From a virus (taxonomy: Duplodnaviria > Caudoviricetes): a DNA stretch of 64,000 bases. Made by a program: the position numbers and the translations under genes. The notes below the pieces were generated by a model that was not told the DNA's origin, made no database searches, and saw only the letters and a program-made list of their open reading frames with translations. The stretch's first letter is position 1; every line of letters starts with the position of its first letter. Of the stretch, positions 319-56,621 are shown piece after piece. The stretch lies in the IMG/VR virus record IMGVR_UViG_3300013426_000019, positions 32,001 to 96,000 of that record. One strand, given 5' to 3'.

Positions 319-1068
319 ATGAAGTTTGATGTAAAACCTGCGAATTTTGACCACTCAGAAAAATTGAAAGAATTTAAAAGAACATACAAATTCTTAAGAG
401 AAACTAAAAAACTAGGAGTATCTATCCTTGCAAGGCTTGATTTAAATTTACTAAGTAGCAACAATTCCTCTTCCAAGAATTATATTATAAATGATGAAGC
501 TTTAGATGCGTATGCAAAAAGTACAGGTATAAATTTCTTAGATTTGCTTCGAAGCAATTTTATAAAACCTCAATCCTCTGTTCTTGATTTAGGGGGAAAT
601 TTTGGATATTTTAGTATGGCACTAGCAGAAAGACTTGATTGTGAGTGTTATGTCTTAGATTCTGATCCTTTCGTAATAGAGCTAGGAAAATTAATAAAAC
701 AAGATTGGTTCGACCTTAGTAAAGAAAGATTAGATATAAAATATTTATGCGGAGACGCATTTAAATTGAGTTTAAAAGACAGTGTTGATTATACTATAAT
801 ATCAAATGTTTTTTCCAGTTTCCGAAAGGATTTAGATTTTGGGGATTCACATGGTTTAATTACTTTACCCTTATTATCTCCTAGTATTCTCAAAAATTCT
901 AAGAATTTAATTATTCATTTGCCTAGGAAAAATGAACCTTTAGTCAGAACATATGAATATTACGAAAAGCAAATAGAAGACATAATTCATACCTGGAAAA
1001 TAGCTAAGCCTCAAAGAATAAAAAATTGGATTGTTTTTTATAATCCGAGAGCTTTAATTGTCCGCTAG
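319..1068 (+). CDS. class I SAM-dependent methyltransferase
   Basis: Motif I VLDLGGNFGYFS, acidic motif II YVLDSD, CGDAF. Confidence 0.75.
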   Translation: MKFDVKPANFDHSEKLKEFKRTYKFLRETKKLGVSILARLDLNLLSSNNSSSKNYIINDEALDAYAKSTGINFLDLLRSNFIKPQSSVLDLGGNFGYFSMALAERLDCECYVLDSDPFVIELGKLIKQDWFDLSKERLDIKYLCGDAFKLSLKDSVDYTIISNVFSSFRKDLDFGDSHGLITLPLLSPSILKNSKNLIIHLPRKNEPLVRTYEYYEKQIEDIIHTWKIAKPQRIKNWIVFYNPRALIVR

Positions 1069-1086
1069 CAATTTAGCTTGTTTGAG

Positions 1087-1132
1087 CAAGAAACCCCAAG
1101 AAACCCTTTTGCTTTAGCTAAAGGTTGTTCAC
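1087..1132 (+). mobile_element. collapsed IS200/IS605 end remnant (PATE-like mini element)
   Basis: TTGAG|CAAGAAACCC(x2)TTTTGCTTTAGCTAAAGGTTGTTCAC: the start matches the left end at 27425 and the finish matches the right end at 28913-28940 of the tnpB element. Confidence 0.75.
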
Positions 1133-1250
1133 AAAGATTCTGTAAAAATTTCACGAAAGAGAAAAGAGCTATTCATTTTAAAAAACCAAGAGTTCAACTA
1201 ATATACATATATCATTTTTAGGGGTGTTCTTTCTGGAGAAAGATGTAAAG

Positions 1251-1361
1251 ATGTTTGATAAATATAGAGATTACTTTAAAAATCTGGAGGATGAGAATGA
1301 CTTAGAATTCCAACTTCTTAAGGATGGTAGAAAGTTATATCTACGAAGGGTGTTGAAGTAA
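1251..1361 (+). CDS. possible 36-aa small protein
   Basis: GGAG upstream; MFDKYRDYFKNLEDENDLEFQLLKDGRKLYLRRVLK; below ORF-track cutoff. Confidence 0.3.
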   Translation: MFDKYRDYFKNLEDENDLEFQLLKDGRKLYLRRVLK

Positions 1362-1505
1362 ATTTTTTTAATAGAAAGGACTTATAAGGTGTTCTATAAG
1401 ATAGAAAAGATTAATTGTGTGACCCCTTAAAAAACTTTTTAATCTTTTGATCAAGGAAATAGTCTACAGTCTCTATAAAAAAAAATCACCCTGGAGGACT
1501 TTTAT

Positions 1506-2246
1506 ATGGGAAATACAAGAGACAGCTTAAGGTTAAGTTTATTCAGCAGTCATGATAGTCACAGTAGTCACAGCAGTCACAGCGATCATAGCAGTCACAA
1601 TAGTCATAGTAATCATGCCAACACAGATACCCAGAATTGGGATACTTCTAAGCTAGCAAATATTTCTTTCCCTAGTGCGGATGATACACTTAGTGTACAG
1701 AAATATCAAAATTTAATGAAAAATTTAAATATTATTAGATCCGCAGTAGGATTATCTCAAAGTAGTACCAATGCCTCTGATATTGCGGAGGCTTCAGAGT
1801 ATAATAGATTTAAATTACAATTAAAAAAAGTGACTAAGCAAGGGGTAACAGGAGGCACTTATTACAACGGGTTGTCGGAGGGTGGTACTGATTGGATTGA
1901 TATCCCGGGAGGGGCATCAAGTAAACAATCTTTATTAACAGATGTTCTGGGTTATTCTACTATACAATCTAGAATATTGGATGCTAAAAATAGAGGTATT
2001 CCAGTGCATGCCAGCCATAATAATCATATTGATCATGGTGACCATGGTAGTCATAGCGACCATAGTAGTCATAGTGACCACAGTGACCACAGTAGTCATA
2101 GTAATCACGACAGTCATAGTAGTCACGGCAGTACCGCGGCAAATTCCACATATAATGCATCTATTTATATCTCTAATTTAGGTTCAGATCACGGAAGCCA
2201 ATACTCCACACCTTATAAGAGCTCAGACTCATGCTATAGAACATAA
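1506..2246 (+). CDS. His-Xaa-Ser repeat protein (HxsA-like putative radical SAM substrate)
   Basis: 8 N-terminal and 14 C-terminal H-x-(S/D/N) triplets around a non-repeat core; GGAGG RBS; heads a radical SAM cluster. Confidence 0.8.
   Translation: MGNTRDSLRLSLFSSHDSHSSHSSHSDHSSHNSHSNHANTDTQNWDTSKLANISFPSADDTLSVQKYQNLMKNLNIIRSAVGLSQSSTNASDIAEASEYNRFKLQLKKVTKQGVTGGTYYNGLSEGGTDWIDIPGGASSKQSLLTDVLGYSTIQSRILDAKNRGIPVHASHNNHIDHGDHGSHSDHSSHSDHSDHSSHSNHDSHSSHGSTAANSTYNASIYISNLGSDHGSQYSTPYKSSDSCYRT
1551..1616 (+). repeat. 9-nt period coding repeat (His every third residue), block 1
   Basis: HDS HSS HSS HSD HSS HNS HSN H. Confidence 0.9.
2007..2132 (+). repeat. 9-nt period coding repeat (His every third residue), block 2
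   Basis: HAS HNN HID HGD HGS HSD HSS HSD HSD HSS HSN HDS HSS HGS. Confidence 0.9.
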
Positions 2247-2258
2247 GTATTCATATTT

Positions 2259-3317
2259 ATGAATTTAGGTTTAGGGACTTTACATTTTTCATCTAAAATT
2301 TTGAATTCTTCAGAATTCAGAGAAATGATCCATTATTGTGTTCGAAATAATATAAGTTATTTCGACACTGGATTTTATTATGGGGAAGAACTAACGGAAT
2401 TTGCATTAGGAAAGCAATTATTTAATTTCCCAAGAGAATCTTATGAGATAGCTGTAAAATATATCCTTAATAGAGAGCATTCCCCTGAGGAAATGCTAAG
2501 GATTCAATTTCAGAAATTAAATATATCCTATGCAGACAATTTACTACTACACAATTTAACTGATAAAAATATTTCTTTTTATTTTGATTTTTTGGATTTT
2601 TTAGAGAAGAGTAAAAGAGAGGGCCTAGCAAAGAGAATAGGATTTTCTTCCCATCTATCCCCTCAAAACTTGGAAATTTTCCTAAAAATCAGAAAGTGGG
2701 ATGTAATATACCTTTATTTAAATTGGGTCGATTTTTACTCGAATACGGCCGAGGAAGAATACAAATTATGTGAAAAATACAAAGTCCCTGTTGTTGCTAT
2801 GGGTCCTCTAAGAGGTGGAAGAATATTAACTTTACCTAAAAAATATAGTTTGGAGTTAAAGAGAGTGCATTCCGAGTGGTCTTTGGTGGATTGGTCTCTA
2901 GGTTGGTTTAATTCTTTAAAAAATTGCAACAGAGTGCTTACTGGGGCCCTTTCTATTAAAGAATTACAAGCTAATATAAAAGCCTCTAAAAATAATTTAA
3001 GTTTATCAGATTTAAATCTTCTGAGAGATATTGCTGTAGATTATAAAAAGGAAAAATTAATACCGTGTACCGGTTGTGGATATTGTGAGAATTTTTGCCC
3101 TCAAAAAATAAAGATACCTCTAATAATTAAAAATTACAATAAATTTCTCTACGAGGAGGAGAAAGATCCTCGCTGGCTTCTCTCTTGGATGAAAGAAGAC
3201 TTAGTTTCATCAGATATAAACCTATGTGTTTTCTGTGGCAATTGTGAACAAATATGTCCTCAAAAAATTGATATTCCAAGGAGAATTAAAATAATTGAAT
3301 CTTGTATTAACTGCTAA
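2259..3317 (+). CDS. aldo/keto reductase with C-terminal 2x[4Fe-4S] ferredoxin domain
   Basis: LGLGT, YFDTGFYYG, LLLH, IGFSSH, AMGPLRGG; CTGCGYCENFCP and CVFCGNCEQICP. Confidence 0.9.
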   Translation: MNLGLGTLHFSSKILNSSEFREMIHYCVRNNISYFDTGFYYGEELTEFALGKQLFNFPRESYEIAVKYILNREHSPEEMLRIQFQKLNISYADNLLLHNLTDKNISFYFDFLDFLEKSKREGLAKRIGFSSHLSPQNLEIFLKIRKWDVIYLYLNWVDFYSNTAEEEYKLCEKYKVPVVAMGPLRGGRILTLPKKYSLELKRVHSEWSLVDWSLGWFNSLKNCNRVLTGALSIKELQANIKASKNNLSLSDLNLLRDIAVDYKKEKLIPCTGCGYCENFCPQKIKIPLIIKNYNKFLYEEEKDPRWLLSWMKEDLVSSDINLCVFCGNCEQICPQKIDIPRRIKIIESCINC

Positions 3318-4323
3318 ATGTGATAAGAATTGTAAAAACTGTTTTGCCTCAGAATACAGAAGACAAGAAAACCTTTTAAATAAGGATTTAGATTTATCTT
3401 TTTTAGAAAAAATATCGCCCTGGGACGGAGTATCCTCTCCCGATATAGGTATATTAGGAGGGGAGCCTACCCTAAATTCCTCTTTTTTCTTGATTCTTAA
3501 AAAATTATGGGATTTGGATTATGTTCCTGTGGTTTTTAGTAATTTTTTATTTGAGGATTTTTTCAAAATTAAATTAAATTCTTTTGTTCAGGATAATATC
3601 TCTCAGAAATTAAAATTCCTCGTAAACATAAATGATTTGAAGGGACCACATCTAAGTAGAGTAGTCAAAAATATTAATTTTATTCAAAAAACCCTTGCTT
3701 CTCAGAGGAAACTGAATGAACTATCTCTTTCTTTAACTATAGATCCTGTAAATTTCAATTCTACTTTTAAATATTTATGTGCCTTTTATAAAAAATTAGA
3801 TTTTATGCCTCGTCTTCGAGTAGGGATAGCTCTTCCCTCTGATTCAGAGGATAAATCTCAGTATAAAAAAATTATAAATAATAAAAATTTAGGAAATACT
3901 ATTATAAGCATTCTTCAATGGTCAGAAAGGCATCGTGTGTGTGTTTTTCTCGATTGTGGTATTTACCCCTGTATTTTTTCTTCTGAAGATTTCTCTATTT
4001 TTCAATCTTTTTTCCCAGATTTTAAATTTGGGTGTGGTGATGAACCCGCTTTTGATATTTTTCCTAATGGAAGGTCTATATTCTGTTTTCCTTTAAAAAA
4101 TCAAATTGCAAATTTTCTTTCTTTAAAAAGAAATTCAGATTTTTCTAATTTTTTTGATATAGTAGAAGCAAAAGAGAATTTAAAAAAGCAATTTATAACA
4201 ATGAAAGAAAAATATTCTTGTAAGGAGTGTTTGACATGCTTTTATAGTGATCTCTGTGAAGGAATATGCCCTGCATTCTTAAAAGGTTCTTTAAAAAAGC
4301 CCAAAGAAGCCTACAAAAATTAA
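3295..4323 (+). CDS. radical SAM protein with C-terminal Cys (SPASM/twitch-like) motifs
   Basis: CDKNCKNC, LGGEPT, C-terminal CLTC..DLCEGIC. Confidence 0.9.
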   Translation: MNLVLTAKCDKNCKNCFASEYRRQENLLNKDLDLSFLEKISPWDGVSSPDIGILGGEPTLNSSFFLILKKLWDLDYVPVVFSNFLFEDFFKIKLNSFVQDNISQKLKFLVNINDLKGPHLSRVVKNINFIQKTLASQRKLNELSLSLTIDPVNFNSTFKYLCAFYKKLDFMPRLRVGIALPSDSEDKSQYKKIINNKNLGNTIISILQWSERHRVCVFLDCGIYPCIFSSEDFSIFQSFFPDFKFGCGDEPAFDIFPNGRSIFCFPLKNQIANFLSLKRNSDFSNFFDIVEAKENLKKQFITMKEKYSCKECLTCFYSDLCEGICPAFLKGSLKKPKEAYKN

Positions 4324-4378
4324 AAACAAAATCAAAATAATTATATTATTAATATAAGAGGTAAGGAGATTTAAAATT

Positions 4379-5815
4379 TTGGAGCCTTTATATAAATTTG
4401 AATTTGAAGCTGTCAATATATATTTTTCTGCAGTCTGTAATCTGAGGTGCAGATATTGTTTTCAACCTAAAATAAATGGTATTTCTCAAGAAATAAATAA
4501 AAAAATTGTAAATTGGATTACCTCCGGAAAAATGGAAGAGGATATAATTAAATATTACGGGGTAAATATTAGTGCTCTCTCTCTCTGGGGAGGAGAGCCT
4601 GGTATAAACCTTCCTATATTAGAAGAGAGGTTGGAATTTATTTATAATAAATTCCCTAAATTAGAAACCATACATTATTCCAGTAATATTTCCACAAAGA
4701 AATTAGCGCGCAATTCTGTTAATTTTATAAAAAAAATAGCTTTTTTGAATGAAAAGTTAGGTAAAAAAATCTCAGTATCTTTACAATTTTCAATTGATGG
4801 GCCTCCCGAAATAAATGATTACAACAGAGTTGGCTCAAAAGCAGAAAATATTCTTAATAATATTACCTTTTTATTGGAAGAATTAAAAGATGTTTCACCT
4901 GACTCTTATTCTTTGAATATTAAAGGAACTCAATCCGCGGATAATATTACTTTTCTAATAAAAGACAATAATTTACTTGAATATTATCAATATTTTGATA
5001 AATGGCAATCCCTCTGGCTAAAAATTTTACCTGAAGAAAAAATTCCGAAGGGCTCAACTTTTATCACACTAGTATATCCTGGGAATTTCACCCAGGAGGA
5101 TGGTTTTAATTTTAAAAAGCTGATAGAGCTTCAAAATTCTGAATCTTTTCAAGAAGAATGTGCCTGCAACACCTTTGTAAATTTCGATAACCAAGTAACA
5201 CGCCGTATAAAAGACACCCTTTCGGCTCTCAGGGCTGGTTACTATAGGGAGTATAAGGGGGAGTTATTACGGGTCTGTTCTTGCAGCGCAGGCAAATCCT
5301 GCGGGGGCCTAACCTATGATTCTCAATTTCACCTATGTCAGGCCACCTATATGTTTAATGAGGATATTCTTAATTATATTGAAAAACATAATTTAATTTC
5401 CGAATTTGAGGATAAGCAGGGATTCAGCTTTAGAAGCTTCGACGATCTTATCAAAGATAATATTGTAGTATCCTTTAGCGATGATTTAAAATTGTCAAGA
5501 CTTCTTTATAAGATAAATAATTTTAATTATAATTTATCTCTTAAAGTTCAGTACTTTGAAGTAATTTTATCGGAATTAGCAGCTGCGAATCAAATCAGCA
5601 GATGCTATCTGGACCCTAAGTGGAGAGATTTAGGTGTTGCTTATCTTCTTTTTGGGGGACATGAATGTCCTGTAAATAACATTTGGGAGTTTAGTTCTCC
5701 TTATATAAGAAGCACCTCCCATTTAAAATTGGTTTTTAATGGGGCCTTTGAGTACTATGTAAGTAATCATTATAGAGATATTTTAGGTCTAAACATAAAG
5801 GATATGATAAGATGA
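4379..5815 (+). CDS. radical SAM protein
   Basis: CNLRCRYC, WGGEP, SIDG, CSAG; TTG start after AGGAG. Confidence 0.9.
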   Translation: MEPLYKFEFEAVNIYFSAVCNLRCRYCFQPKINGISQEINKKIVNWITSGKMEEDIIKYYGVNISALSLWGGEPGINLPILEERLEFIYNKFPKLETIHYSSNISTKKLARNSVNFIKKIAFLNEKLGKKISVSLQFSIDGPPEINDYNRVGSKAENILNNITFLLEELKDVSPDSYSLNIKGTQSADNITFLIKDNNLLEYYQYFDKWQSLWLKILPEEKIPKGSTFITLVYPGNFTQEDGFNFKKLIELQNSESFQEECACNTFVNFDNQVTRRIKDTLSALRAGYYREYKGELLRVCSCSAGKSCGGLTYDSQFHLCQATYMFNEDILNYIEKHNLISEFEDKQGFSFRSFDDLIKDNIVVSFSDDLKLSRLLYKINNFNYNLSLKVQYFEVILSELAAANQISRCYLDPKWRDLGVAYLLFGGHECPVNNIWEFSSPYIRSTSHLKLVFNGAFEYYVSNHYRDILGLNIKDMIR

Positions 5816-7197
5816 ATTTCAATTTCATAGAAGAACAGAAAAAACTACTTTATTCTTTTCTAGACATTCACTGCTTCAGGAATTGGAGGATTCCCCCCTC
5901 AAAAAGAACAGGAGAGGAGTATGTAAATCTTTTAGAAATGATGGTTTCGCCCGTATGTAATACTGCTTGCACATATTGTTACATGAAAAATTATGCTGAT
6001 TCTCTATACCCTTGTTTTTATGATAAAAATTCCTTATTAAATAATTGTAAAAAGATTATGACCTGGCTCAAAAAAGAAAATTTTTATCCCTCAAGTATAG
6101 AGATTTTTTCCGGAGAATTTTTCAATTTGCCCTTTTGGAAGGATTATTTACAAATAATTTATGATTCTCTAGAAAAAATGGAGGAGGGTAAAAAAGTACC
6201 AATAGTAATTCCCACCAATGGAACTTTTTTTGATTCTGAGAAAAAAACACAGGAAATACAAGATTATTTTGACAGAGTTTATAAAAAAGGTTTTATTATT
6301 GTTCTATCTCTCTCTGTAGATGGATATTATTTAGATAATGATACACGCCCTTTTAGAGACAAAAGAAGATACACAGAAGATTTTTATGATAGGATGTTTA
6401 GATTTGGGGCTCGTAATTTAATTAAATATCATCCTATGATAGGCGCGAAAGGTATAGAGAGATGGGTAGATAATTTCGATTGGTATGTAGAAAATATTCA
6501 AAAATATTACAAAATTCCAAAAAAAGAAGCCCTTGAAAAATTATACTTATTAGAGGTAAGAAATCCCGACTGGTCTACTAAGGAATTAAAAGATTTTAAA
6601 GTTTTTTTAAATCATATAATTGATGTTTTATTTGAGGGGTGCACATCTCCTGAGGAGAAGTTCAATCTACTTCTCAGCAATACTTTAAATATACTAGCAC
6701 CTCTAGTAGTTACTATAGGAAGAGGCCTCCCCTGCTCTTTTCAGCAGTGTCTAGATTTAAGGGTAGGAGATCTTGCCTTAGTTCAGTGTCATAGAACAGC
6801 ATATAGCGAATTGCTAGGCGGGTATTTTAAAATATCAGATAAAGGAGAATTAGACCTAGACGTGCGCAATGCAAATTCATACATTTTTTCTAATTCTTTT
6901 AATTTTAAACACCTAGCCAAATGCATAGATTGTCCTATTAGCTCTCTTTGTAATGGGCCTTGTTTAGGGTGTAATTATGAGGTTAACAGGGATTTATATA
7001 CTGTAGTGCCTACAGTTTGTGATTTAGAATACACAAAGGCTTTGACTTTAGTTGAAAGGGCGTATCAAGAAGGCTTTTTAGATAGTATTTTAGAAATACA
7101 TTCAAATAGCACCTCCTCTGATTCTGTTTTAAAGAAAAATCAATTATTACACCTTAAAAAATATCTAGAAATTAAAAACACTAAAGGAGATTTTTAA
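5812..7197 (+). CDS. radical SAM/SPASM protein
   Basis: CNTACTYC, PTNGT, SVDG, CHR, CIDC...CNGPCLGC. Confidence 0.9.
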   Translation: MNFNFIEEQKKLLYSFLDIHCFRNWRIPPSKRTGEEYVNLLEMMVSPVCNTACTYCYMKNYADSLYPCFYDKNSLLNNCKKIMTWLKKENFYPSSIEIFSGEFFNLPFWKDYLQIIYDSLEKMEEGKKVPIVIPTNGTFFDSEKKTQEIQDYFDRVYKKGFIIVLSLSVDGYYLDNDTRPFRDKRRYTEDFYDRMFRFGARNLIKYHPMIGAKGIERWVDNFDWYVENIQKYYKIPKKEALEKLYLLEVRNPDWSTKELKDFKVFLNHIIDVLFEGCTSPEEKFNLLLSNTLNILAPLVVTIGRGLPCSFQQCLDLRVGDLALVQCHRTAYSELLGGYFKISDKGELDLDVRNANSYIFSNSFNFKHLAKCIDCPISSLCNGPCLGCNYEVNRDLYTVVPTVCDLEYTKALTLVERAYQEGFLDSILEIHSNSTSSDSVLKKNQLLHLKKYLEIKNTKGDF

Positions 7198-7199
7198 TA

Positions 7200-7703
7200 A
7201 TGTTATTGGATCAAGTAAAAGAATTTATTAATTCAAATAAGAATTTGATAGACGATCTAACTAAGGCTAGACCACAGGGGTATATTTATGCTTTTTTACA
7301 AGAATGCCTCTCATTAATGGAAGGAGGAGATTCCTCAAAAATAGATGAGACCTTTTTACATGAATATAGATATACTGTATTGACTTTTACAGACGTCATT
7401 ATCAAAACAAAAACAACACAATCAGAAAAAATCGTGATAAAAGCAATTGCAAACTTATTATATAATGTCTCTATTAATTATGGCATAACCGAGTGCAGTA
7501 CTGAGCTTAATGCTTTGGTGATACTTTCAGAAGCCTCAAAATCTTTAGAGGATATTTTATATGTATTGATATGTATTTTTAATAAATTAAGTGATAGACT
7601 TTATGAAGAGCCTACGACTAATCTTCTTTCAAGAAAATATTATTTAGAACTAAGTGATTTTTTAGAAGCAAGAAAATCCCATGATGAAAAATATAATATA
7701 TAA
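7200..7703 (+). CDS. hypothetical helical protein in radical SAM cluster
   Basis: ORF with AAGGAG RBS, coupled to upstream gene. Confidence 0.6.
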   Translation: MLLDQVKEFINSNKNLIDDLTKARPQGYIYAFLQECLSLMEGGDSSKIDETFLHEYRYTVLTFTDVIIKTKTTQSEKIVIKAIANLLYNVSINYGITECSTELNALVILSEASKSLEDILYVLICIFNKLSDRLYEEPTTNLLSRKYYLELSDFLEARKSHDEKYNI

Positions 7704-10274: not shown

Positions 10275-10284
10275 GGAGCCTCAG

Positions 10285-49837: not shown

Positions 49838-51109
49838 ATGTATAGTTTAAAACTAGGTTCTGCTTGCAACAATGACTGCATTCATTGTAATGTAAATTCA
49901 GAAGATAATATTGAAAATTTAATTTTTGAGGAAATTCGGGAGATAGTTGATGATATTCCTCAAGGGGAAATAATTTGTCTAGAAGGAGGGGAACCAACTC
50001 TAAGAGAAGACTTTTTTGATATAGTAGAGTATTGTGGTTTAAAAGGGCATAAAATAATACTCCAAACCAACGGCACGGGCCTCACGGAAGAAATCACCCA
50101 AAAAATAAAGCCTTTTGTAAAAAAAGTATATATATCTATATATTCTTCTAATTCTTATATTCATAATTTAATTACTAGAACTCATAATGAAAAAAGTACA
50201 TTTGAAAAAACAATACAAGCCTTAAAAAATCTCTATAGGTATTCTATTCCATTCAATACGCAAACAGTTATTTCTAAAATTAATATGGCTTCTTTATATG
50301 ATACTTTCTCCTTTATTCAAAAAGAATGCCCTGGTATTTTTATGTGTCTCACTTATCCTCATCCTATTAAAAATATTTGGGAAAATAAAATTTTAACATG
50401 TGTTTCTTTTAAGGAATTGAAGCCCTTTATTCAGCCTTGCTTCAGAGATTTCGGTCCTTTTTTAATAGTAGAGTCAATTCCTCCCTGTTATATATTTCCT
50501 TTTTATCAAAATATAGGATATAATTTAGACGCTATTATTAAAAATAAACTTTTAAAAAACGAGAATTACTATAAATATGGGGATGTAGAAAAATATCCAG
50601 TTAAAAACTTTAATTTTAAAAGAAAGGGCCCTAAATGTGTGGACTGCTTTTATTTTGAGGAATGTCTAGGTGTTTGGAAAGAATATGTAGATTTGTATAG
50701 ATTACATTTCGATCTTTTTCCTATAGATATAAAAACCCCCTGGAATATTTCTTTGGATAATTTTCTACAACTTGAGATAGATGATTTTTCTTATGAGGAT
50801 ATAAAAAAGATCCTAGAAAATAATAAAAATTATAAGCCTGTTTTAATTAAGATTAAAGATTTTTCAAAAAATCTTTCAATTAAATTGAATAGGGCAAAAG
50901 CAATATCTCAGATAGTAGACAATTATTCTTTCCCAATATCTTTTTTAGATATCCCTAAATGTTATTTAGAGCCCTTTACTGGAGTAATCAACACTTATCA
51001 AAAAAATTTTGAAAAAAATTCAGACAAATGTAAAAATTGCAATTTTAGAAAGGAGTGCTTTGGCTTTGATTTCAAATTAATTGATTCCAAGATGAAGGAT
51101 TGGAAATGA
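49838..51109 (+). CDS. radical SAM protein (paralog of 10285..11865)
   Basis: CNNDCIHC, GGEPT, QTNGTG, LTYPHP, IPPCY, KRKGPKC..C...ECLGVWKEY. Confidence 0.9.
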   Translation: MYSLKLGSACNNDCIHCNVNSEDNIENLIFEEIREIVDDIPQGEIICLEGGEPTLREDFFDIVEYCGLKGHKIILQTNGTGLTEEITQKIKPFVKKVYISIYSSNSYIHNLITRTHNEKSTFEKTIQALKNLYRYSIPFNTQTVISKINMASLYDTFSFIQKECPGIFMCLTYPHPIKNIWENKILTCVSFKELKPFIQPCFRDFGPFLIVESIPPCYIFPFYQNIGYNLDAIIKNKLLKNENYYKYGDVEKYPVKNFNFKRKGPKCVDCFYFEECLGVWKEYVDLYRLHFDLFPIDIKTPWNISLDNFLQLEIDDFSYEDIKKILENNKNYKPVLIKIKDFSKNLSIKLNRAKAISQIVDNYSFPISFLDIPKCYLEPFTGVINTYQKNFEKNSDKCKNCNFRKECFGFDFKLIDSKMKDWK

Positions 51110-51134: not shown

Positions 51135-51824
51135 ATGCTAAGAATTTCTTTAGAAAAAGGTGAGGAAGGGTTTGAAATCTTAAAAAATTCTTTAATTGAG
51201 GACAGAGAATCTTTTTTAGAAAATAATTTTATAAAAAATAGAAAAGATATAATCACATTGATTCTTTTGGATAGAAATGTTATTTTTGAAAGGGTTCCTG
51301 AAAAAAGTAGCTCTTTTATAAAAGATAATATTTTCTGGATTAAAGCTCAGTACCCCGCTGTGCTTTCTTCTTCCCTTGCAGGAAGATATGAAAAGCCTTC
51401 TTTATTTCCAAAAGGAGAATTTCTTATAAGTTATTTTCGCTCTTTCACCTCTGAATCCCTTGCTAAAAGGGACTGGATTATTAATGAAATTCCTTATGCT
51501 CTTATTAATTCTATTTTAAAATTAAAAGGAAATGAGGAGTATAAAAATATTCAGTTAAGGGGGCATACAGTTCTCTATAAAAATAAAAAAGTTTTAGCAG
51601 AAGAAACTTTTTATAATTCTTCTTCAGTATTTTTTGATTGTCAGATTCATCTAGATTGGAATCAGGAAAGTTGGGATATTTATGATAAATATTGTAGTGA
51701 ATTTAAAAGTGCATATGAAAAGGGAAATCTTTTATCTTTATTAAATATTTCCAGAGAAGAATTTTTAAAAGTTTTTATATCCGAATTGGAAAATTTGGAA
51801 TATTTTATTAAAATAATGGAGTGA
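51135..51824 (+). CDS. hypothetical protein, possibly remote lipoate/biotin-ligase fold
   Basis: GHTVLYKNKKVLAE weakly resembles the NDIL.NGKK.G motif. Confidence 0.35.
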   Translation: MLRISLEKGEEGFEILKNSLIEDRESFLENNFIKNRKDIITLILLDRNVIFERVPEKSSSFIKDNIFWIKAQYPAVLSSSLAGRYEKPSLFPKGEFLISYFRSFTSESLAKRDWIINEIPYALINSILKLKGNEEYKNIQLRGHTVLYKNKKVLAEETFYNSSSVFFDCQIHLDWNQESWDIYDKYCSEFKSAYEKGNLLSLLNISREEFLKVFISELENLEYFIKIME

Positions 51825-51834
51825 ATTAAATTTT

Positions 51835-52107
51835 ATGGATGAAATTTGTACACGATGCGGAAAAAAGATAGAAAATACAAAAATAGAAATTAATTTAGGC
51901 TTTTCTGTTTTTAAAAGAGAAAATAATGTTTGGGGATTGTCTTTGGATCTTAATCAAAAATCTGTTGAAATTTTATGTGCAAATTGTTTTGATAATTTTT
52001 GCAATACTTTATTTATTAAAAATAATAATGAATTTTTAAAGAATTTTAATACATCTAAAAAAAATAAAGATCCTGTTGAAATTGACGGAAATGTGGACTA
52101 TAACTAG
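51835..52107 (+). CDS. small zinc-finger protein
   Basis: CTRCGKK...LCANCFD. Confidence 0.7.
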   Translation: MDEICTRCGKKIENTKIEINLGFSVFKRENNVWGLSLDLNQKSVEILCANCFDNFCNTLFIKNNNEFLKNFNTSKKNKDPVEIDGNVDYN

Positions 52108-52210: not shown

Positions 52211-53077
52211 ATGTTTGAATTTTTAACAGACACAGGATCTGAAATAGATAATTACCTTAGAGAATCCTTAAATATAGGCCTTCTCAGGACGGGTGTTACT
52301 TTAAAAACAAGAGAGATCTTTTCAGATGCGAATTGGGATAATGTAAATGCTTTTGAATTTTTCAAAGATTTAGAAGAGGGCGTAGTAAGCATATATCAGC
52401 CCGCAATGAATTACTGGAAAGATATTGTAGAAGAGATATTTAAGAAGGGTAAAGACGTATTATTTTTAGGTATGTCCTCCAGATTTACAGGGGGAATCAA
52501 AAATCTTAACATTATTAAAATGCTTCTGAGTCCTATTTATCCTGACAGAAAATTAGTAATTTTGGACTCAGGGCTTGTTGCAGGAGGCGAGAAATGTCTA
52601 GTATTAGCTGTAGCAGAGTATTTAAAGGATAAAAGAGAAGAAGATGTAGAAAAAATAGCCTCTGAAATAAAAATCAAGTTTTTAGGCAGAGGAATAACTT
52701 ATTGGATTTTAGATTCTTTAAAATTCTATATGAAGGCTAATAGAGGTTTAGATTCTTTTAAAGATTTGAATATTCCTAAAGGTTATCCTATAATAAAATC
52801 TGAGAATGGCAGCTTTTTTTTAAAAGGATTATTTAATTCAAAAGAAGATGCTTTGGAAGCACTAATAGGGGATATAAAACTCTCATCTATAGAGACTTTG
52901 GAGTTTACTTACTCTCCGGACTGGGATTTAAAAAAGATAAGAGAAGTAGTAAATCAGCTGGAATCTAATTTAAATATTATTATTAATCATAATATTACTT
53001 ATCAGAGCCCGTCAGTTACTGCTGTAACAGGGCCTTATTCTTATAGTATAGGAGTTTTAAAAAATGTTACTTTTTAA
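52211..53077 (+). CDS. DegV family fatty-acid-binding protein (FakB-like)
   Basis: LTDTGS, QP, MSSRFTG, VILDS, SPSVTAVTGP; 288 aa. Confidence 0.8.
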   Translation: MFEFLTDTGSEIDNYLRESLNIGLLRTGVTLKTREIFSDANWDNVNAFEFFKDLEEGVVSIYQPAMNYWKDIVEEIFKKGKDVLFLGMSSRFTGGIKNLNIIKMLLSPIYPDRKLVILDSGLVAGGEKCLVLAVAEYLKDKREEDVEKIASEIKIKFLGRGITYWILDSLKFYMKANRGLDSFKDLNIPKGYPIIKSENGSFFLKGLFNSKEDALEALIGDIKLSSIETLEFTYSPDWDLKKIREVVNQLESNLNIIINHNITYQSPSVTAVTGPYSYSIGVLKNVTF

Positions 53078-53154: not shown

Positions 53155-53161
53155 ACTAATT
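53155..53161 (+). promoter_or_regulatory. ACTAATT putative phage late-promoter motif upstream of the Cys-repeat operon
   Basis: Same heptamer precedes structural genes (16007, 21612, 30717, 32155, 41343; minus strand 15546, 20412, 23910). Confidence 0.55.
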
Positions 53162-53241: not shown

Positions 53242-53517
53242 ATGAAGGATACAAATATTGAATTGTCTGCAGAAGACAGACAAGATATAAATCTGTCTTT
53301 AGAGGTTATTAATACCGCAGAATTTGAATTGAGGAATATATCGGGATTTGAGAATCTCAAAGAAGAAGAAGTACGAAATATTTACCAAGGGGCTTGTGAT
53401 GCCCTGATAGAAGGGAGAGTAATGCTACATCTTCTTCGCCAAGAATTTGTAAAAAAATATAATATTCCATATGATTTTATTTCCATCGATGGTCATATTT
53501 ATTTACAAGAGGATTAA
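53242..53517 (+). CDS. CXXX-repeat modification system accessory protein-like
   Basis: ~90 aa, LSAEDRQDI...IYQ...KKYN...IYL pattern and position recall the small TIGR04116-type partner. Confidence 0.45.
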   Translation: MKDTNIELSAEDRQDINLSLEVINTAEFELRNISGFENLKEEEVRNIYQGACDALIEGRVMLHLLRQEFVKKYNIPYDFISIDGHIYLQED

Positions 53518-53520
53518 ATA

Positions 53521-54537
53521 ATGGCGGTTATCCCTGACAATCAAAATTTTTTATCTACAGACAAGAATACCCCCCTAAAGGAAGCACAATTAAAATCTTT
53601 ACTAGCACAAGCTATTACAGCGAGAGCTAAAAGAGGTTGGACTACTTCTGAAGACAGTATCAGTCTCTATACTCATAGGGTGTCCCTTTCTCAGATGAAT
53701 GATATGTCAAACGTTATTATTGACAAGTCATCCGATCAGCATATTCCTTATAGTAGTTCACCTTATCCTAAAGCAATTTCCTCAGGGTCGAAAGTTTTTG
53801 CTAAAGCTACAGATTATAATGAATTGCAACAAGCAGTAAATGATATATCTAATAATATTATGTGCGAAGGTTGTAGTAATACTTGTTATGCAAGCTGTGC
53901 AAATTCTTGTGCTTCAAGTTGCACTAGTACTTGTGTTAATTTATGTACAGATAATTGTGGCTCTTCCTGCACAGACACTTGTAACAGCATAAGTTGTAAT
54001 AATGCAAATTGTTCTGCGGCTAATTGTTCTTCGGTAGCTTGTACAAAAACCAACTGCTCCTCAGGAAGTTGTTCTTTCGGTGCTTGTAATGCCTCGGGAT
54101 GTGATAAAGGCTCTTGCGAGAATGGTTCATGTCATCAAAGTTCTTGTGAGAGATCAGGATGCAACTATGATAGTTGTGATTCTACTTCCTGTGATTCTGG
54201 TTCTTGTGATACAGGCTCTTGTAGTCAGAAGACATGCAGCGATTCCGGGTGTAGTAAAGATACATGTGGCAAGGCCACCTGTTCTAGTGGGGCCTGCAAC
54301 GGTGGTGAATGCAATTCAGGAGCTTGCGCGAGAAGTGGCTGCGACGCTTCTAATTGTTCCACGGATAGTTGTGATGACGCAGACTGCAATGCGGACCCTT
54401 GCAGCAATAATACATGCAATAGCACGGGCTGCAGCCACGATAGCTGCTCTAATAACACTTGTGACTCTGATGATTGTAGCACTGCCACTTGTTACAGCGG
54501 GGATTGCAATGGTGGATCTATGAATAAATCACATTAA
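53521..54537 (+). CDS. Cys-repeat protein (CXXX then CXXXX), putative radical SAM substrate
   Basis: ~114-aa non-repeat N-terminus, then 46 Cys with strict periodicity. Confidence 0.85.
   Translation: MAVIPDNQNFLSTDKNTPLKEAQLKSLLAQAITARAKRGWTTSEDSISLYTHRVSLSQMNDMSNVIIDKSSDQHIPYSSSPYPKAISSGSKVFAKATDYNELQQAVNDISNNIMCEGCSNTCYASCANSCASSCTSTCVNLCTDNCGSSCTDTCNSISCNNANCSAANCSSVACTKTNCSSGSCSFGACNASGCDKGSCENGSCHQSSCERSGCNYDSCDSTSCDSGSCDTGSCSQKTCSDSGCSKDTCGKATCSSGACNGGECNSGACARSGCDASNCSTDSCDDADCNADPCSNNTCNSTGCSHDSCSNNTCDSDDCSTATCYSGDCNGGSMNKSH
53863..54509 (+). repeat. Cys-periodic coding repeat (12-nt then 15-nt period)
   Basis: 9 CXXX intervals followed by 35 CXXXX intervals. Confidence 0.9.
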
Positions 54538-54551
54538 AGGAGATTTTTAAA

Positions 54552-54746
54552 ATGGGTATATGCTCAGGATGCTGGGGAAATTGCAATAAGGGCTGTTCTG
54601 GTGATTGTAATAATAAATGTATTTCCACTTGCACCGGATCTTGTGTAGGATCATGTTCAGGATTATGTGAAAATACATGTACAGATACCTGTATTAATAC
54701 TTCTAAAAATGATACTCGTATTACTTCTTTTGTCGTAAAATTTTAA
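54552..54746 (+). CDS. CXXX-repeat peptide (12 Cys), putative RiPP precursor
   Basis: MGICSGCWGNCNKGCSGDC...; AAGGAG RBS; directly upstream of radical SAM gene. Confidence 0.85.
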   Translation: MGICSGCWGNCNKGCSGDCNNKCISTCTGSCVGSCSGLCENTCTDTCINTSKNDTRITSFVVKF

Positions 54747-54755
54747 GGGGTTTAA

Positions 54756-55940
54756 ATGATTAAAAAATGGAATGCCTTTAGTGGTTATAATATAACAATC
54801 AATACTACTGAAGATTGTAATTTAAGATGCAAATATTGTTACGAGATATATAAAAAACCTGGAAATATAGATCTTAATACAGCTAAGAAATTTATAGATT
54901 TTATTTTCGATGATCCCGACCCTACCAATATAAAAGATGAAAGGCCAGATGCTTATGATGGATTGATTTTAGACTTAATTGGGGGTGACGCCCTAATGAA
55001 TGCTGATATTTTAGATGATATTTTTAAATATGTAAATACTCGTTGGGCTTTAAGTGATAAATTCAAAAAACATGGTTGGAGATCCTCAATATCTTCAAAT
55101 GGTACGCTATTCTACAAAAAGGAAGTTCGAGATTTTTGTGAAAAATGGCAAGACCACTTAAGTTTAGGGGTGTCAATTGATGGTTGTCCCACTATTCATA
55201 ATAAGAATAGAATATTTTGTGATGGTAGGGGGAGTATGTCTACTATTCTAGAGTGGTGGCCCTGGTATAGAAAAATATTCCCCGTAAATTCTTTAGAGAC
55301 AAAGGCAACTTGCAATAAAGACTCTATTCCTTATTTATATGAATCTTTGAAATGGATGCATGAGGAATTAGGGTTAAGATGGATTAATCAGAATTTTATT
55401 GGGGAAAACATGGATCTCATCGAAAAGGATCTTCAAGAATTAGACAAACAACTTGAAAAGTGCTGTGATTATTGTTTAAAACATAAAGAAGATCTTTATT
55501 GGTCAATTCTAGGAGAGAGATTCCAATTTCCACGCAATGAAAAATATGATTCTACCTTTGCTACTGCAAGTTGTGGAGCAGGACAGATGCCCGCTTGTTC
55601 TATTAAAGGTGATTTATATCCTTGTTTTAGATGGCTGCCTCAATCTCAGGGGGATAAATTTGCAAAATATAAAATTGGAAATATCCATGGTAAATTAAAT
55701 AAAAACCTCTTTAAGGAGGTCAGAACTTTAGCAAGGGCTTCTAATTGCACAAAGGAAAATAAATGCTTAGAATGTGAGTATTCTTCAGCTTGTGTTTGGT
55801 GTGTAGCTGGCTCTTTCGCAGAGTATGATGATTTTATTAGACAAACTCATATATGTGAGGTAACAAAACTCCAATGTAAATGGGCAAAAATTTATGTAGA
55901 GAAATTAAAGGAGAGTTTAAATGAAAATACAAAAGTTTGA
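54756..55940 (+). CDS. radical SAM/SPASM peptide maturase (CXXX-repeat target type)
   Basis: TEDCNLRCKYCY, IGGD, SSNGT, SIDG..HNKNR, CGAG, YPCFR, CLEC...CVWC. Confidence 0.88.
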   Translation: MIKKWNAFSGYNITINTTEDCNLRCKYCYEIYKKPGNIDLNTAKKFIDFIFDDPDPTNIKDERPDAYDGLILDLIGGDALMNADILDDIFKYVNTRWALSDKFKKHGWRSSISSNGTLFYKKEVRDFCEKWQDHLSLGVSIDGCPTIHNKNRIFCDGRGSMSTILEWWPWYRKIFPVNSLETKATCNKDSIPYLYESLKWMHEELGLRWINQNFIGENMDLIEKDLQELDKQLEKCCDYCLKHKEDLYWSILGERFQFPRNEKYDSTFATASCGAGQMPACSIKGDLYPCFRWLPQSQGDKFAKYKIGNIHGKLNKNLFKEVRTLARASNCTKENKCLECEYSSACVWCVAGSFAEYDDFIRQTHICEVTKLQCKWAKIYVEKLKESLNENTKV

Positions 55941-56325
55941 GGGAATGATAGGGCCTTGCGGAATATTTGATGATAGTCTAGGTATGACTAATGATGAAGT
56001 TCCTGTTTCCTTAGAAAATAATGTTTATAGTGACGCTATGAACTTAGATGGATGTAATTATACCGCCCTATTATTAGATTCTTTAGATTTAAATCTCCTT
56101 AGACCTAATTTAAGATCCTACATAAGGAATGCTATTTTAAATAAGGCGCAGACTTCTTTTGTATATGGTGAACTCTTACGCCCTTTCAATAAAGCCTGTA
56201 AAGAACTGGGGATTGAATGTAACCCTCACATTACCCCTGATGGAATATTTATTAATATGGAAGATTATTTTACTTGGCAGAAATTATATTTCCATCATCC
56301 AACAAAAAGTGAAAAGAGAGCTTAA
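55921..56325 (+). CDS. hypothetical protein in Cys-repeat operon
   Basis: Overlapping ORF, AGGAG RBS. Confidence 0.6.
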   Translation: MKIQKFEGMIGPCGIFDDSLGMTNDEVPVSLENNVYSDAMNLDGCNYTALLLDSLDLNLLRPNLRSYIRNAILNKAQTSFVYGELLRPFNKACKELGIECNPHITPDGIFINMEDYFTWQKLYFHHPTKSEKRA

Positions 56326-56333
56326 ATTAAAAT

Positions 56334-56621
56334 ATGGAAGAAATAAGTGAAAAAAAAGAAATTACTAAAGAGTATCTAATATTTTTGTATTCAAAATTAA
56401 AAAAAGAATTGAATGAAGCTTTTCAAAGTTTCCAGGAAAATTTAAAAGCTGAAGATATAAGAGAATTAAATACTAAAGTAGCAGACATACAATCCAGGGC
56501 TCGATTATTAATTATGTTTATAATTTCTAATTGTGAATTAGATAATTTATCTACCACTATAGCTAATGTTAAAAAATGGCAAGAGGAAATTACTTGTGAG
56601 CAGCTATTTTCTCAGAATTAA
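56334..56621 (+). CDS. hypothetical protein
   Basis: ORF closing the AT-rich operon. Confidence 0.55.
   Translation: MEEISEKKEITKEYLIFLYSKLKKELNEAFQSFQENLKAEDIRELNTKVADIQSRARLLIMFIISNCELDNLSTTIANVKKWQEEITCEQLFSQN

Follow-up and report, generated by a model that had tools for sequence, protein, structure and literature searches.

Two sets of putative radical-SAM protein-maturation genes in an uncultured jumbo phage, one of them probably serving a tail-associated Cys-repeat protein

What does a phage do with ten radical-SAM genes and with proteins in which His or Cys recurs at fixed intervals? The window analysed here, a stretch of 64,000 nucleotides, lies entirely within an IMG/VR phage record of 158.8 kb, and its source is an uncultured jumbo phage of ~220 kb. 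An earlier note on this DNA had listed ten ORFs with a CxxxCxxC motif, and all ten carry it at the starts named there. When the phage's own record was searched in six frames, nine passed the Radical_SAM Pfam cut-off. The tenth, at 3295, is weak (18–19 bits) and combines the motif with a SPASM-like C-terminal Cys cluster. The genes form two islands, and we consider it somewhat better than an even chance that these are two protein-maturation kits, the product of kit 2 being tail-associated and kit 1 being a His-repeat analogue.

The Cys operon of island 2 and the genes that follow it are these:

53155..53161, + strand: promoter-like ACTAATT motif at the head of the Cys operon, upstream of 53242
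53242..53517, + strand: 91-aa helper of a TIGR04116-related family; in 12 other loci a homologue directly precedes the Cys target
53521..54537, + strand: 338-aa target, an N-domain of ~115 aa (three strand-plus-helix units, AF2) followed by 46 periodic Cys (from the Cys gaps)
54552..54746, + strand: second target of 64 aa with 12 Cys spaced by 4 (Cys gaps), without N-domain
54756..55940, + strand: radical SAM/SPASM maturase, phage clade of the CXXX-repeat-target family
55921..56621, + strand: two ORFs (134 and 95 aa) that accompany the operon within this clade, 88–93% identical in the relatives L009 and L010; no family match
56644..57489, + strand: DAK2 plus FakA-middle-domain protein, truncated FakA-like (YloV 143 bits; Dak2 and FakA-like_M domains)

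The motif had been reported ahead of this operon, and it is indeed found there. Eleven of its 18 copies in the window are intergenic, although non-coding DNA makes up only 6.1% of the window (binomial P ~1e-9). Because of this enrichment we regard ACTAATT as a real promoter-like element. Intergenic copies also occur at the tail-fibre-like and baseplate-like genes 30781, 32171 and 41478, and synteny with L010 starts at 53152.

The maturase, which has more than 500 homologues, matches TIGR04115 with 217.6 bits (E 3e-64), under the equivalog cut-off of 350, and the PapB model with 146 bits. Its closest solved structure is CteB (5WGG, E 2.5e-31), with the alignment beginning at CteB residue 101. 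TIGR04116 is matched by three of 13 helper-family members (E 4.9e-8); the window's own helper gave no match to that model, and neither it nor the 338-aa target has a direct NCBIfam match. The 64-aa target reaches 19.4 bits with TIGR04117 and 17.6 bits with TIGR04114, both under the cut-offs. Judged by sequence, genes 53242–55940 are best classed as a phage-type version of the catalogued, uncharacterised CXXX-repeat system (TIGR04114/5/6). A canonical TIGR04115 system may also be clearly bacterial, its precursor being 99 aa long and having a Tat-like signal (by eye). Since such systems with short exported precursors exist, the phage type is a sub-clade and not the whole CXXX family.

The three proposed substrates are exactly periodic, as had been claimed. 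In the 53521–54537 protein, the 46 Cys are separated by one gap of 3, nine of 4 and 35 of 5 residues; in the 54552–54746 peptide, the 12 Cys show one gap of 3 and ten of 4; and in the 1506–2246 protein of island 1, seven His gaps of 3 are followed by one of 131 and 13 more of 3. Recent slippage is not the source of the Cys spacing, because the 53521 gene contains only two short repeats of 15 bp each at the DNA level. The N-domain of the 338-aa target is conserved (24 synonymous versus 7 non-synonymous codon differences), whereas its spacers change rapidly and show indels of 5 and 10 residues, with the Cys kept. Repeat number in Cys targets varies in 5- or 10-residue units. The 64-aa ORF differs from its L009 counterpart, in the coding frame, by 14 synonymous and 6 non-synonymous codons. 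The Cys repeat unit shows no conserved single acceptor residue. AF2 models the N-domain with pLDDT 60–84 and the Cys region below 40, and fold searches with the N-domain gave nothing above background. The proposal that His and Cys substrates share a common scaffold is suggestive only.

Where else does the cassette occur? We fetched 13 viral and 19 bacterial-genome loci with relatives of the maturase. A Cys-periodic protein of 190–540 aa is encoded directly upstream in 12 of the 13 and 16 of the 19, mostly with an N-domain of ~100–115 aa, and the helper ORF is present in 12 loci. The typable neighbours are tail, tail-fibre or baseplate genes. For example, in L017, L028 and L030 a tail protein (phrog_3267) is followed by a protein of 1105–1163 aa and then the cassette, the ORFs overlapping or almost touching. 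The neighbour is a protein matching a host-specificity PHROG in L020 and a 1925-aa tail fibre in L036. In L042 the cassette has a baseplate gene on one side and an endolysin on the other, and in L021 it lies 2–3 kb upstream of baseplate wedge genes. SPN3US and Erwinia jumbo phages have Cxxx ORFs at the corresponding place: two or three of them, in tandem and without annotation, directly follow a 'virion structural protein' and precede two radical-SAM genes. A 2368-aa protein of the window and L039 both match phrog_9915. We found no publication describing a phage tail Cys-repeat cassette.

Both islands had been placed inside a morphogenesis region. This fits island 2, which follows tail-fibre-like and baseplate-like genes, but not island 1, which lies between a split terminase region (in the window) and replication-type genes (on the other side, as seen in the collinear relatives L046 and L047). 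Because the Cys cassette recurs in tail, baseplate or fibre modules, and does so in many phages and prophages unrelated to one another, a product associated with the particle is favoured over an antibiotic that is secreted, as had been proposed for the locus as a whole; for the His-repeat island there is no such synteny. A virion location of the Cys product is thus supported by synteny, short of proof.

In the reading we prefer, the Cys cassette probably staples a tail-associated protein. The 54756 enzyme and the 91-aa helper would act on the Cys arrays of both targets, the 338-aa protein and the 64-aa peptide. Judging from characterised relatives, the enzyme would most likely convert Cys thiols into intramolecular S–C thioether bridges to neighbouring small polar residues. 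A flexible tract rich in Ser, Asn, Asp, Gly and Thr may in this way become a covalently stapled, protease-resistant rod. The product would stay unexported, and its N-terminal helical domain probably anchors it in or on the tail or baseplate apparatus.

Upstream of the operon lies a further block:

47794..48873, + strand: HxsC/MoaA-like radical SAM (Radical_SAM 54.6 bits; 85% identical in L009)
48839..49837, + strand: HxsC-like radical SAM, paralogue of 47794 (Radical_SAM 45.5 bits; 32% identical to 47794)
49838..51109, + strand: HxsC/AhbD-like radical SAM, paralogue of 10243 (Radical_SAM 75 bits)
51135..52107, + strand: 229-aa ORF and 90-aa zinc-ribbon ORF, the latter a paralogue of 12452; no family match
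52211..53077, + strand: DegV (FakB-like) fatty-acid-binding protein (DegV 63.7 bits)

The DegV protein is only 35% identical to the L009 copy, whereas its flanks show ~85% nucleotide identity; the DegV allele has been swapped among relatives. The block 47794–53077 as a whole may be a swappable tailoring cassette.

Kit 1 (319–13832) consists of the following genes:

319..1068, + strand: SAM-dependent methyltransferase-like ORF, 249 aa (Methyltransf_11 23.5 bits, cut-off 21.2, a marginal pass)
1506..2246, + strand: His-x-(S/D/N) repeat protein, 246 aa, candidate island 1 substrate (His gaps)
2259..3317, + strand: aldo/keto reductase with a fused 2x[4Fe-4S] ferredoxin domain (Aldo_ket_red 89.2 bits, Fer4_9 36.6 bits)
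3295..4323, + strand: divergent radical SAM with SPASM-like C-terminal Cys cluster (CDKNCKNC at residue 9; Cys 309/312/315/321/325)
4379..5815, + strand: radical SAM, twitch-like (Radical_SAM 33.3 bits; N_Twi_rSAM 59 bits, under cut-off)
5812..7197, + strand: radical SAM/SPASM (Radical_SAM 31.8 bits in the genome search and 28.5 bits with hmmscan; full-length PapB match at 49 bits)
7200..7703, + strand: 167-aa ORF kept in L046 and L047; no Pfam or NCBIfam match
7745..9016, + strand: radical SAM/SPASM, paralogue of 9009 (Radical_SAM 51 bits)
9009..10274, + strand: radical SAM/SPASM, paralogue of 7745 (HMM matches, pairwise identity)
10243..11865, + strand: HxsC/AhbD-like radical SAM with C-terminal extension, paralogue of 49838 (Radical_SAM 69.6 bits)
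11865..12449, + strand: 194-aa ORF; no Pfam match
12452..12799, + strand: zinc-ribbon protein, 41% identical to its paralogue 51835 in the 51135..52107 block
12828..13832, + strand: putative GT2-like glycosyltransferase (by-eye N-terminal motif only)

The 246-aa protein has 8 N-terminal and 14 C-terminal His triplets around a core of ~130 aa. Its HxsA/HxsA4 matches are weak and far under the cut-offs, and libraries of 5.8 and 1.8 billion proteins yielded only three relatives. The models with which the 7745 protein scores best are those of anSME and of peptide maturases, HxsB and cyclophane-forming enzymes among them, all under cut-offs (PapB 94, anSME 84, YhhB 73, HxsB 59.5 bits), and is 28% identical to the 9009 protein. 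The 10243 protein scores 82 bits with AhbD and 74.8 bits with HxsC (cut-off 267.9), and is 46% identical to 49838. The 3295 protein stays under both the Radical_SAM (19 bits) and SPASM (20.8 bits) cut-offs. No HXS family cut-off was passed by the His island. As for the tailoring enzymes named earlier, the Fe-S aldo/keto reductase is clear, the methyltransferase marginal, and the GT2 ORF has no Pfam or NCBIfam match; a similar motif, again by eye, occurs in two ORFs directly upstream of the L014 Cys cassette.

Gene order is kept in L046 and L047, including the reductase; the methyltransferase ORF is variable (in L046, not in L047). A separate 201-kb viral contig, L053, carries homologues of 10243, 9009 (44% identical), 3295 and the zinc ribbon; the latter also occurs in L010 and recurs beside HxsC-like radical-SAM genes. 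The His island and its six radical-SAM genes occur only in this phage clade, and no identified tail genes adjoin the island in this phage. Kit 1 may be a clade-restricted analogue built around the His-x-Ser/Asp/Asn repeat protein. Radical-SAM enzymes forming His-based cyclophanes are documented (PMC11499958), and the SPASM paralogues 7745 and 9009 are plausible makers of His cyclophane links that span three residues. Further steps would fall to the remaining four radical-SAM enzymes, the methyltransferase, the possible glycosyltransferase and the Fe-S reductase, which may donate electrons or carry out redox tailoring.

Bacterial HxsA-D is a proven anti-phage system in which two radical-SAM enzymes mature an HxS-repeat effector that blocks DNA entry (PMC13128918). 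Superinfection exclusion is for this reason a serious rival for island 1: matured His- and/or Cys-repeat proteins would stay in the infected cell envelope and keep out the DNA of competing phages. In island 1, radical-SAM genes of the SPASM type and HxsC-like ones do accompany an HxS-repeat protein, and both islands are compositionally foreign (GC 28–31% versus 39% in the core). The slot after tail-fibre genes is, moreover, a classic place for prophage cargo genes. However, every Hxs model scores far under its cut-off, HMM searches of island 1 found no peptidoglycan-binding domain, signal peptide or HxsD, and PADLOC gave only generic viperin-like radical-SAM similarity. The explanation is weaker still for the Cys cassette, which in SPN3US-like jumbo phages directly follows the annotated virion structural protein and in small phages lies on the same strand as the tail genes and closely packed with them. 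Taken for the locus as a whole, we consider it unlikely, though with a real chance.

The N-domain could alternatively be a long leader, as in NHLP/Nif11-type precursors, recognised by helper and maturase. The modified Cys or His core would then be released when the cell lyses, or be cut loose by a protease of the host, and would act as an antimicrobial, as a signal or by chelating metal. Elsewhere the maturase family is linked to the maturation of peptides, the helper is a relative of TIGR04116, a canonical bacterial member has a short precursor, and the 64-aa target of the same operon lacks an N-domain. Against this, the targets reach 190–540 aa with up to 92 Cys, and their arrangement next to tail genes is conserved. 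As noted earlier, HMM searches detected no exporter or peptidase in either island, and none was present in any phage locus inspected; HMM and structure-profile searches of the window proteins also found no signal peptide or RRE domain. A released product of this kind has, in our view, a rather small chance.

We find it improbable that the Cys and His arrays are not radical-SAM substrates and merely chelate Fe-S, Zn, Cu or Ni like metallothioneins or metal-storage proteins, supplying the phage's Fe-S enzymes or buffering metals. The composition fits, and ten Fe-S enzymes require clusters, but the matches of the target profile to vanadium-binding and copper-storage proteins are not significant (E 0.016 to 0.9), and the strict target-helper-maturase adjacency across more than 25 loci argues for enzyme-substrate pairing. 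Mis-assembled host DNA or non-coding low-complexity sequence, to which the low island GC and the likewise open opposite strand of the Cys genes might point, is largely refuted by the same islands and junctions in four independent assemblies (L009, L010, L046 and L047, 71–88% nucleotide identity), the synonymous bias and a Cys phase unbroken over 224 codons without DNA-level repeats, and has a negligible chance.

Compared with known systems, the stapling proposed for the Cys cassette has its closest parallels in CteB, which forms thioethers, PapB and QhpD, the nearest characterised relatives of the 54756 SPASM enzyme and the basis of the thioether analogy. For kit 1, bacterial HXS is the only characterised conceptual relative, and its effector is exported and defensive (PMC13128918).

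The earlier note had read the periodic proteins of the two islands as parts of the phage particle. For the Cys cassette of island 2 (53242–55940), which encodes a helper (53242, 91 aa), a 338-aa target (53521), a 64-aa peptide (54552) and a SPASM maturase (54756), this interpretation is partly supported, in that synteny with tail, baseplate and fibre genes across many lineages favours a tail-associated, enzymatically modified protein as its product. An alignment-based maturase scan yielded 13 viral and 19 bacterial-genome loci. A Cys-periodic ORF (190–540 aa, 21–92 Cys) lies directly upstream of the maturase gene in 12 of the viral and 16 of the bacterial-genome loci, and those without one are cut at a contig end or are very distant relatives. 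Most targets have an N-terminal domain of about 100–115 aa followed by (Cxxx)n, and many end in a C(A/S)NSxRxG-like tail. In 12 loci a helper ORF of 87–119 aa stands before the target; some of these helpers carry a CxxC zinc ribbon at the N-terminus. No match came from a scan of viral contigs with the single maturase protein, from a word search with the N-domain (the N-terminal ~115 aa of the target), or from tblastn of the N-domains of this phage and of locus L022 against GenBank phages. The cassette was found in the following neighbourhoods:

L017, L028 and L030 (Sphaerochaeta-type prophages): after a tail protein (phrog_3267, E 2e-58) and a 1105–1163 aa protein, with ORFs that overlap or abut
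L020: after an 849-aa protein with a host-specificity PHROG match
L036: adjoining a 1925-aa collagen-like tail fibre
L042: between a baseplate protein and an endolysin, with a maturase above the TIGR04115 cut-off
L021 (388-kb megaphage): 2–3 kb upstream of gp25-like and gp6-like baseplate wedge genes
L039: after a protein that has phrog_9915 in common with the 2368-aa protein of the window

The baseplate protein of L042 also matches phrog_9915. Between the cassette and the wedge genes of the megaphage (7511–9574) we noticed ORFs that by eye resemble KdsA, KdsB and transaldolase, which hints at sugar decoration. A 253-kb contig (L012; 9677–10042 and 11272–13509) encodes a target on each side of the maturase, one of 281 aa upstream and a Cxxx one of 121 aa downstream, as well as a 330-aa Cys-rich protein beside a second radical-SAM gene on the other strand, with S-AdoMet lyase genes nearby. 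Several targets per locus seem to be common.

The same module is present in Salmonella phage SPN3US (L048, NC_027402), where 6001–7030 holds three tandem Cxxx ORFs of 130, 134 and 68 aa at 6001–6393, 6404–6808 and 6824–7030, each with an N-terminus of about 50 aa before the Cxxx repeats. An annotated virion structural protein directly precedes them; two radical-SAM genes and a DUF4376 protein follow. Their N-terminal part is conserved in 48 records of SPN3US-like and Erwinia jumbo phages (in Erwinia phage Huxley, L011, the Cxxx ORF is 3119–3508). Most of these records leave the ORFs unannotated or call them on another frame or strand; SPN3US RefSeq gp100 (locus 6477–6812) and Huxley gp177 seem to be such wrong-frame or wrong-strand calls. 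The best-scoring canonical TIGR04115 gene that we inspected (L052, 639 bits) is bacterial: its neighbour is a Cxxx precursor of 99 aa that by eye has a Tat-like signal, and there are no phage genes around it. In the taxonomic class to which the L043 genome belongs, 1 of 301 genomes sampled contained a family member. Given the tail setting in phages, this bacterial setting and this rarity, the phage type seems to be a separate use of a family that is sporadic and mobile.

The CXXX-repeat modification system has been defined by comparative genomics only; its parts are TIGR04114/TIGR04117 targets, a TIGR04115 radical-SAM/SPASM maturase, a TIGR04116 helper and the Pfam family PF27846. The model searches proposed in the earlier note (TIGR03977–03979, TIGR04114–04116, SPASM) placed the operon near this system, with scores under the curated thresholds. 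TIGR04115 is the best model for 54756 (217.6 bits, E 3.4e-64), below the equivalog cut-off of 350, which the more distant relatives in L042 and L043 pass (457 and 405 bits). The helper 53242 has no direct TIGR04116 match, and 3 of 13 aligned members of its family do match (best E 4.9e-8). The 64-aa peptide reaches 17.6 bits against a cut-off of 20 for TIGR04114 and 19.4 against 50 for TIGR04117; the 338-aa target matches neither model, and the ESM Atlas ties it to PF27846 clusters. The Hxs models, too, stayed below their cut-offs. In 54756, the cysteines of the motif CNLRCKYC at residue 21 and the SPASM cysteines 337/340/346/349 are invariant across 35 homologues; more than 500 homologues were found at E <1e-10, many on contigs of 180–390 kb.

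The spacing in all three periodic proteins (His every third residue, Cys every fourth or fifth, Cys every fourth) is exactly as first described, and DNA slippage is not its source. There are 10 intervals of four in the 64-aa protein and 9 in the 338-aa protein. The latter also has 35 Cys intervals of five, despite the low scores with CefB, the maturase model for Cys at every fifth residue (NF038107; 47.7 bits for 54756 and 34.6 for 4379, cut-off 600). A model of the Cys protein gave no hit above background among PDB representatives (Z ≤5.5) and none at E <1 in BFVD, and a shape search of the ESM Atlas returned its own kind only, a viral PF27846 cluster. The solved structure closest to 54756 is CteB (PDB 5WGG), which aligns only from CteB residue 101, so the phage maturase has no N-terminal RRE domain; the separate helper may stand in for it. 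Complex prediction for maturase, N-domain and helper scored 0.00, which counts neither for nor against binding.

How the operon evolves was seen from relatives of the phage. Its IMG/VR record is linear, 158,768 bp long and an estimated 74% complete, and the window covers bases 32001–96000; the near-collinear ENA contig L009 (221 kb) suggests a full genome of about 220 kb. A helicase gene and several of the following features, namely the terminase, the tail-fibre-like gene and the 2368-aa protein, identify it as a phage:

20476–21612 and 16923–18380, minus strand: large terminase, split into two ORFs with an HNH/homing-endonuclease ORF in between
18340–20406: this HNH/homing-endonuclease ORF, 688 aa (phrog_3339, E 9e-94)
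27588–28925, plus strand: first transposase ORF, 445 aa (phrog_506, E 7e-90)
32171–33670: tail-fibre-like protein
33682–40788: 2368-aa protein (phrog_14959, phrog_24896, phrog_9915)
44839–46182, minus strand: second transposase ORF, 447 aa, with ends near-identical to the first copy
52211–53077: DegV (FakB-like) gene, bracketing the Cys operon together with the next feature
56644–57489: truncated DAK2/FakA-like gene

Mis-assembly of the islands was rejected. Their GC content is 30.6% and 28.0%, against 39.3% in the core. Megablast of the window against GenBank phages found a 50-bp transposase-related match only. The second transposase copy (~44827–46373) is missing from the collinear L009 and is therefore probably a recent insertion. 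Between this insertion and island 2 stand two tandem paralogous ORFs (46484–46987, 167 aa; 47013–47531, 172 aa) that are 35% identical, belong to no known family and are conserved in L009.

The Cys operon had been described as lying behind the motif ACTAATT, and the motif at 53155 does head it. This is a genuine intergenic element: 11 of its 18 copies are intergenic in a window that is 6.1% non-coding (P ~1e-9), and it precedes the genes at 28984, 30781, 32171 and 41478, among others. The synteny with relative L010 begins exactly at this promoter motif (53152). Upstream of it, L010 has another tailoring block with radical-SAM, GT2, GT8 and DegV genes, and in L014 the two ORFs directly upstream of the cassette share, by eye, the N-terminal motif of 12828. 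Judged from these arrangements, the Cys operon is the stable unit and the tailoring block exchangeable. Between this phage and L009 the DegV alleles are only 35% identical, against ~85% for the flanking DNA, which suggests cassette replacement. Relative to L009, codon differences in the N-domain are synonymous in 24 cases and non-synonymous in 7. An ungapped comparison of the Cys region gives 66 and 86, respectively, and this region also has indels that are 5, 10 or more residues long. All cysteines remain in phase, and the spacers, in which S, T, N, G and D prevail, have no invariant position. This pattern fits a structure in which only the spacing of the cysteines would matter.

The ten radical-SAM genes counted from the sequence hold up: all ten ORFs have CxxxCxxC, and nine pass the Radical_SAM cut-off in a six-frame search of the phage's own record, the exception being 3295, which scores weakly and has a SPASM-like Cys cluster in addition to the motif. 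C-terminal Cys patterns sort them into three groups:

3295, 5812, 7745, 9009 and 54756: SPASM-type
10243, 47794, 48839 and 49838: HxsC-like with CxxCx5C
4379: twitch-like

The paralogue pairs 10243/49838 and 12452/51835 show that both islands share a sub-module of an HxsC-like radical-SAM gene and a zinc-ribbon gene. An eleventh radical-SAM ORF lies outside the window (record 119621–119905, in a 263-aa open frame, 50 bits). PADLOC returned generic viperin-like radical-SAM similarity only. As for the proposed tailoring enzymes, the HMM evidence is firm for the Fe-S aldo/keto reductase and marginal for the methyltransferase; 12828 was not accepted as an established glycosyltransferase, since its GT2 assignment has no HMM support. 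HMM scans of the islands detected no peptidase or exporter family, in line with the absence claimed earlier.

Island 1 (319–13832) is confined to this phage clade. In libraries of 5.8 and 1.8 billion proteins, its HxS protein (1506–2246, 246 aa) has three relatives in all, with the same architecture; the third match of the profile search with the HxS core (its middle part), P0124 of 1380 aa, proved to be a repetitive junk ORF. Tblastn of the core against GenBank phages gave no match, and none of 7 genomes from the phylum of the L038 genome contained island-1 enzymes. The gene order is kept in two related phages. A different viral contig of 201 kb (L053) has homologues of 10243 (43%), 9009 (44% and 34%), 3295 (28%) and the zinc ribbon, beside ORFs that are fibre-like by eye only. 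Its 244-aa ORF, by eye a candidate HxS-type substrate, was discarded because it did no better than shuffles in HMM tests. A 156-aa ORF preceding the L053 island has a single match among GenBank phages, in a human faecal phage (MT835573.1, 14370–17525), ~1.7 kb from a CXXX-type maturase homologue, and by this proximity the protein may be another companion of radical-SAM kits.

The enzymes 7745 and 9009 match the YhhB, XyeB, AmcB and FxsB models at 57–83 bits, none reaching its cut-off. Since they resemble cyclophane maturases, and the three-residue cyclophane ('triceptide') maturases HaaB and HtkB link His (PMC11499958), we infer that they might form cyclophanes between His and residue i+2. For this island, inter-phage conflict may equally be the purpose: the bacterial HXS system blocks DNA entry, which makes exclusion of rival phages a real alternative to a role in the particle.

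A scaffold common to the two large substrates had also been proposed. BLASTP of the 1506 and 53521 proteins found low-complexity matches only, and the single hhalign match joins the first helix of each (E 0.026, probability 1.9%). An HMM of 17 Cys N-domains, by comparison, scored four HxS cores at 6.7–13.9 bits; the 9.7 bits of the core in this phage were reached by 4 of 1000 shuffles. In the ESM Atlas both queries have the same top cluster (113 aa, 102 members, mostly viral) and share several structure-based clusters, among them viral Peptidase_S74, fn3 (one annotated 58% viral, one annotated mostly bacterial) and bacterial Big_7. AF2 predicted three strand-plus-helix units for the Cys N-domain (pLDDT 60–84) and, at low confidence, two for the HxS core; the whole HxS protein has a mean pLDDT of 40, too low for a fold search. 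We regard common ancestry of the two scaffolds as likely, short of established. The link to S74 and fn3, if real, would fit an anchor domain of fibre-type proteins, as far as these low-confidence models can be read.

A wider reading, to which we give somewhat less than an even chance, is that tailed phages ranging in size from prophages of 40 kb to megaphages of 390 kb employ dedicated radical-SAM enzymes that cross-link the repeat tracts of tail-associated proteins in the host cytoplasm, which would yield an enzymatically stapled virion material. The tracts would be Cys and, in this clade, also His. The substrates would be modular, with a common N-terminal docking or anchor domain and interchangeable repeat 'business ends', and the accessory cassettes (extra radical-SAM enzymes, glycosyltransferases, a fatty-acid kinase pair) swapped among close relatives would vary the surface chemistry of the fibre. 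Four features set the window apart: both kits occur in it, which brings the enzymes to ten; its Cys array at spacing 5 is long; its HxS protein is restricted to the clade and possibly has a shared scaffold; and a FakB/FakA-like pair comes with the swappable tailoring block. Our literature search found no paper describing the Cys cassette in phage tails or these kits. To our knowledge, cross-linking by radical-SAM enzymes has been described for small secreted peptides and a few enzyme subunits, and not for virus particles. Should the Cys- and His-repeat proteins belong to the virion, they would represent a new covalent reinforcement or surface chemistry of phage tails. This could affect host recognition, the stability of particles in anaerobic guts and sediments, and the engineering of phages, and the CXXX-repeat family (TIGR04114–6, PF27846) would gain a biological role. 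A direct test is possible, since the module also occurs, in ORFs missed by current annotations, in SPN3US-like phages of Salmonella and Erwinia that are in culture, such as SPN3US itself and the Erwinia phages Huxley and Asesino. The His island raises a second question, namely whether phages carry an HXS-like system as well and, if they do, whether it serves their own particle or acts against rivals.

Among known systems, the definition of ranthipeptide and sactipeptide RiPP clusters (a maturase with an N-terminal RRE leader-binding domain, a short precursor, and a protease or exporter) does not fit the window: the alignment to CteB begins at residue 101 of that enzyme, and no protease or exporter family was found. 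In triceptides the pattern recurs every three residues and starts with an aromatic one. The substrate here shares this signature and 7745 and 9009 match such maturases moderately, but no model reaches its cut-off, the substrate has 246 aa and 22 units, and the link is predicted.

In the anti-phage system HXS (HxsD-HxsB-HxsC-HxsA; Li et al., Nat Commun 2026, PMC13128918), HxsA is matured by radical-SAM enzymes and blocks the entry of DNA. Island 1 likewise encodes a tandem His-x-Ser protein with SPASM-type and HxsC-type enzymes, and its product would be a matured protein, not a small peptide. However, the scores are far lower than the cut-offs: 26.3 against 121.65 bits for HxsA (TIGR03979, 1506), at best 59.5 against 370 for HxsB (TIGR03978, 7745) and 74.8 against 267.9 for HxsC (TIGR03977, 10243), while 7200 has no HxsD match (11865 and 12452 were scanned against Pfam only). 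Island 1 also differs in having six radical-SAM genes instead of two, 22 repeats in two blocks instead of five, no export signal and no Pfam domain in the 1506 protein, peptidoglycan-binding included, a gene order other than D-B-C-A, and a phage as its carrier.

With the thioether-forming maturases CteB (for SCIFF), PapB and QhpD the Cys maturase shares the SPASM architecture and homology across the whole catalytic core, and those enzymes place several Cys-based cross-links in one substrate. QhpD forms links between Cys and Asp/Glu within a protein subunit, QhpC, and thereby offers a precedent for products that are proteins and not natural products. PapB is the maturase of freyrasin (PMC12373016); its model gives 54756 146 bits (cut-off 340), and the phage enzyme differs from PapB and CteB in lacking the RRE domain at the N-terminus. 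The 46 candidate sites of the target far exceed any characterised substrate, and the chemistry here is predicted.

The canonical member of the CXXX-repeat system, L052, has a short precursor with a Tat-like signal (by eye) in a non-phage setting, whereas the version studied here scores below the curated cut-offs, has no signal peptide, stands in phage tail modules and adds to a folded-looking N-domain 35 units at spacing 5. Its operon likewise joins a maturase that has TIGR04115 as its best model, targets with Cys at each fourth position, and a putative helper from a family of which some members reach TIGR04116.
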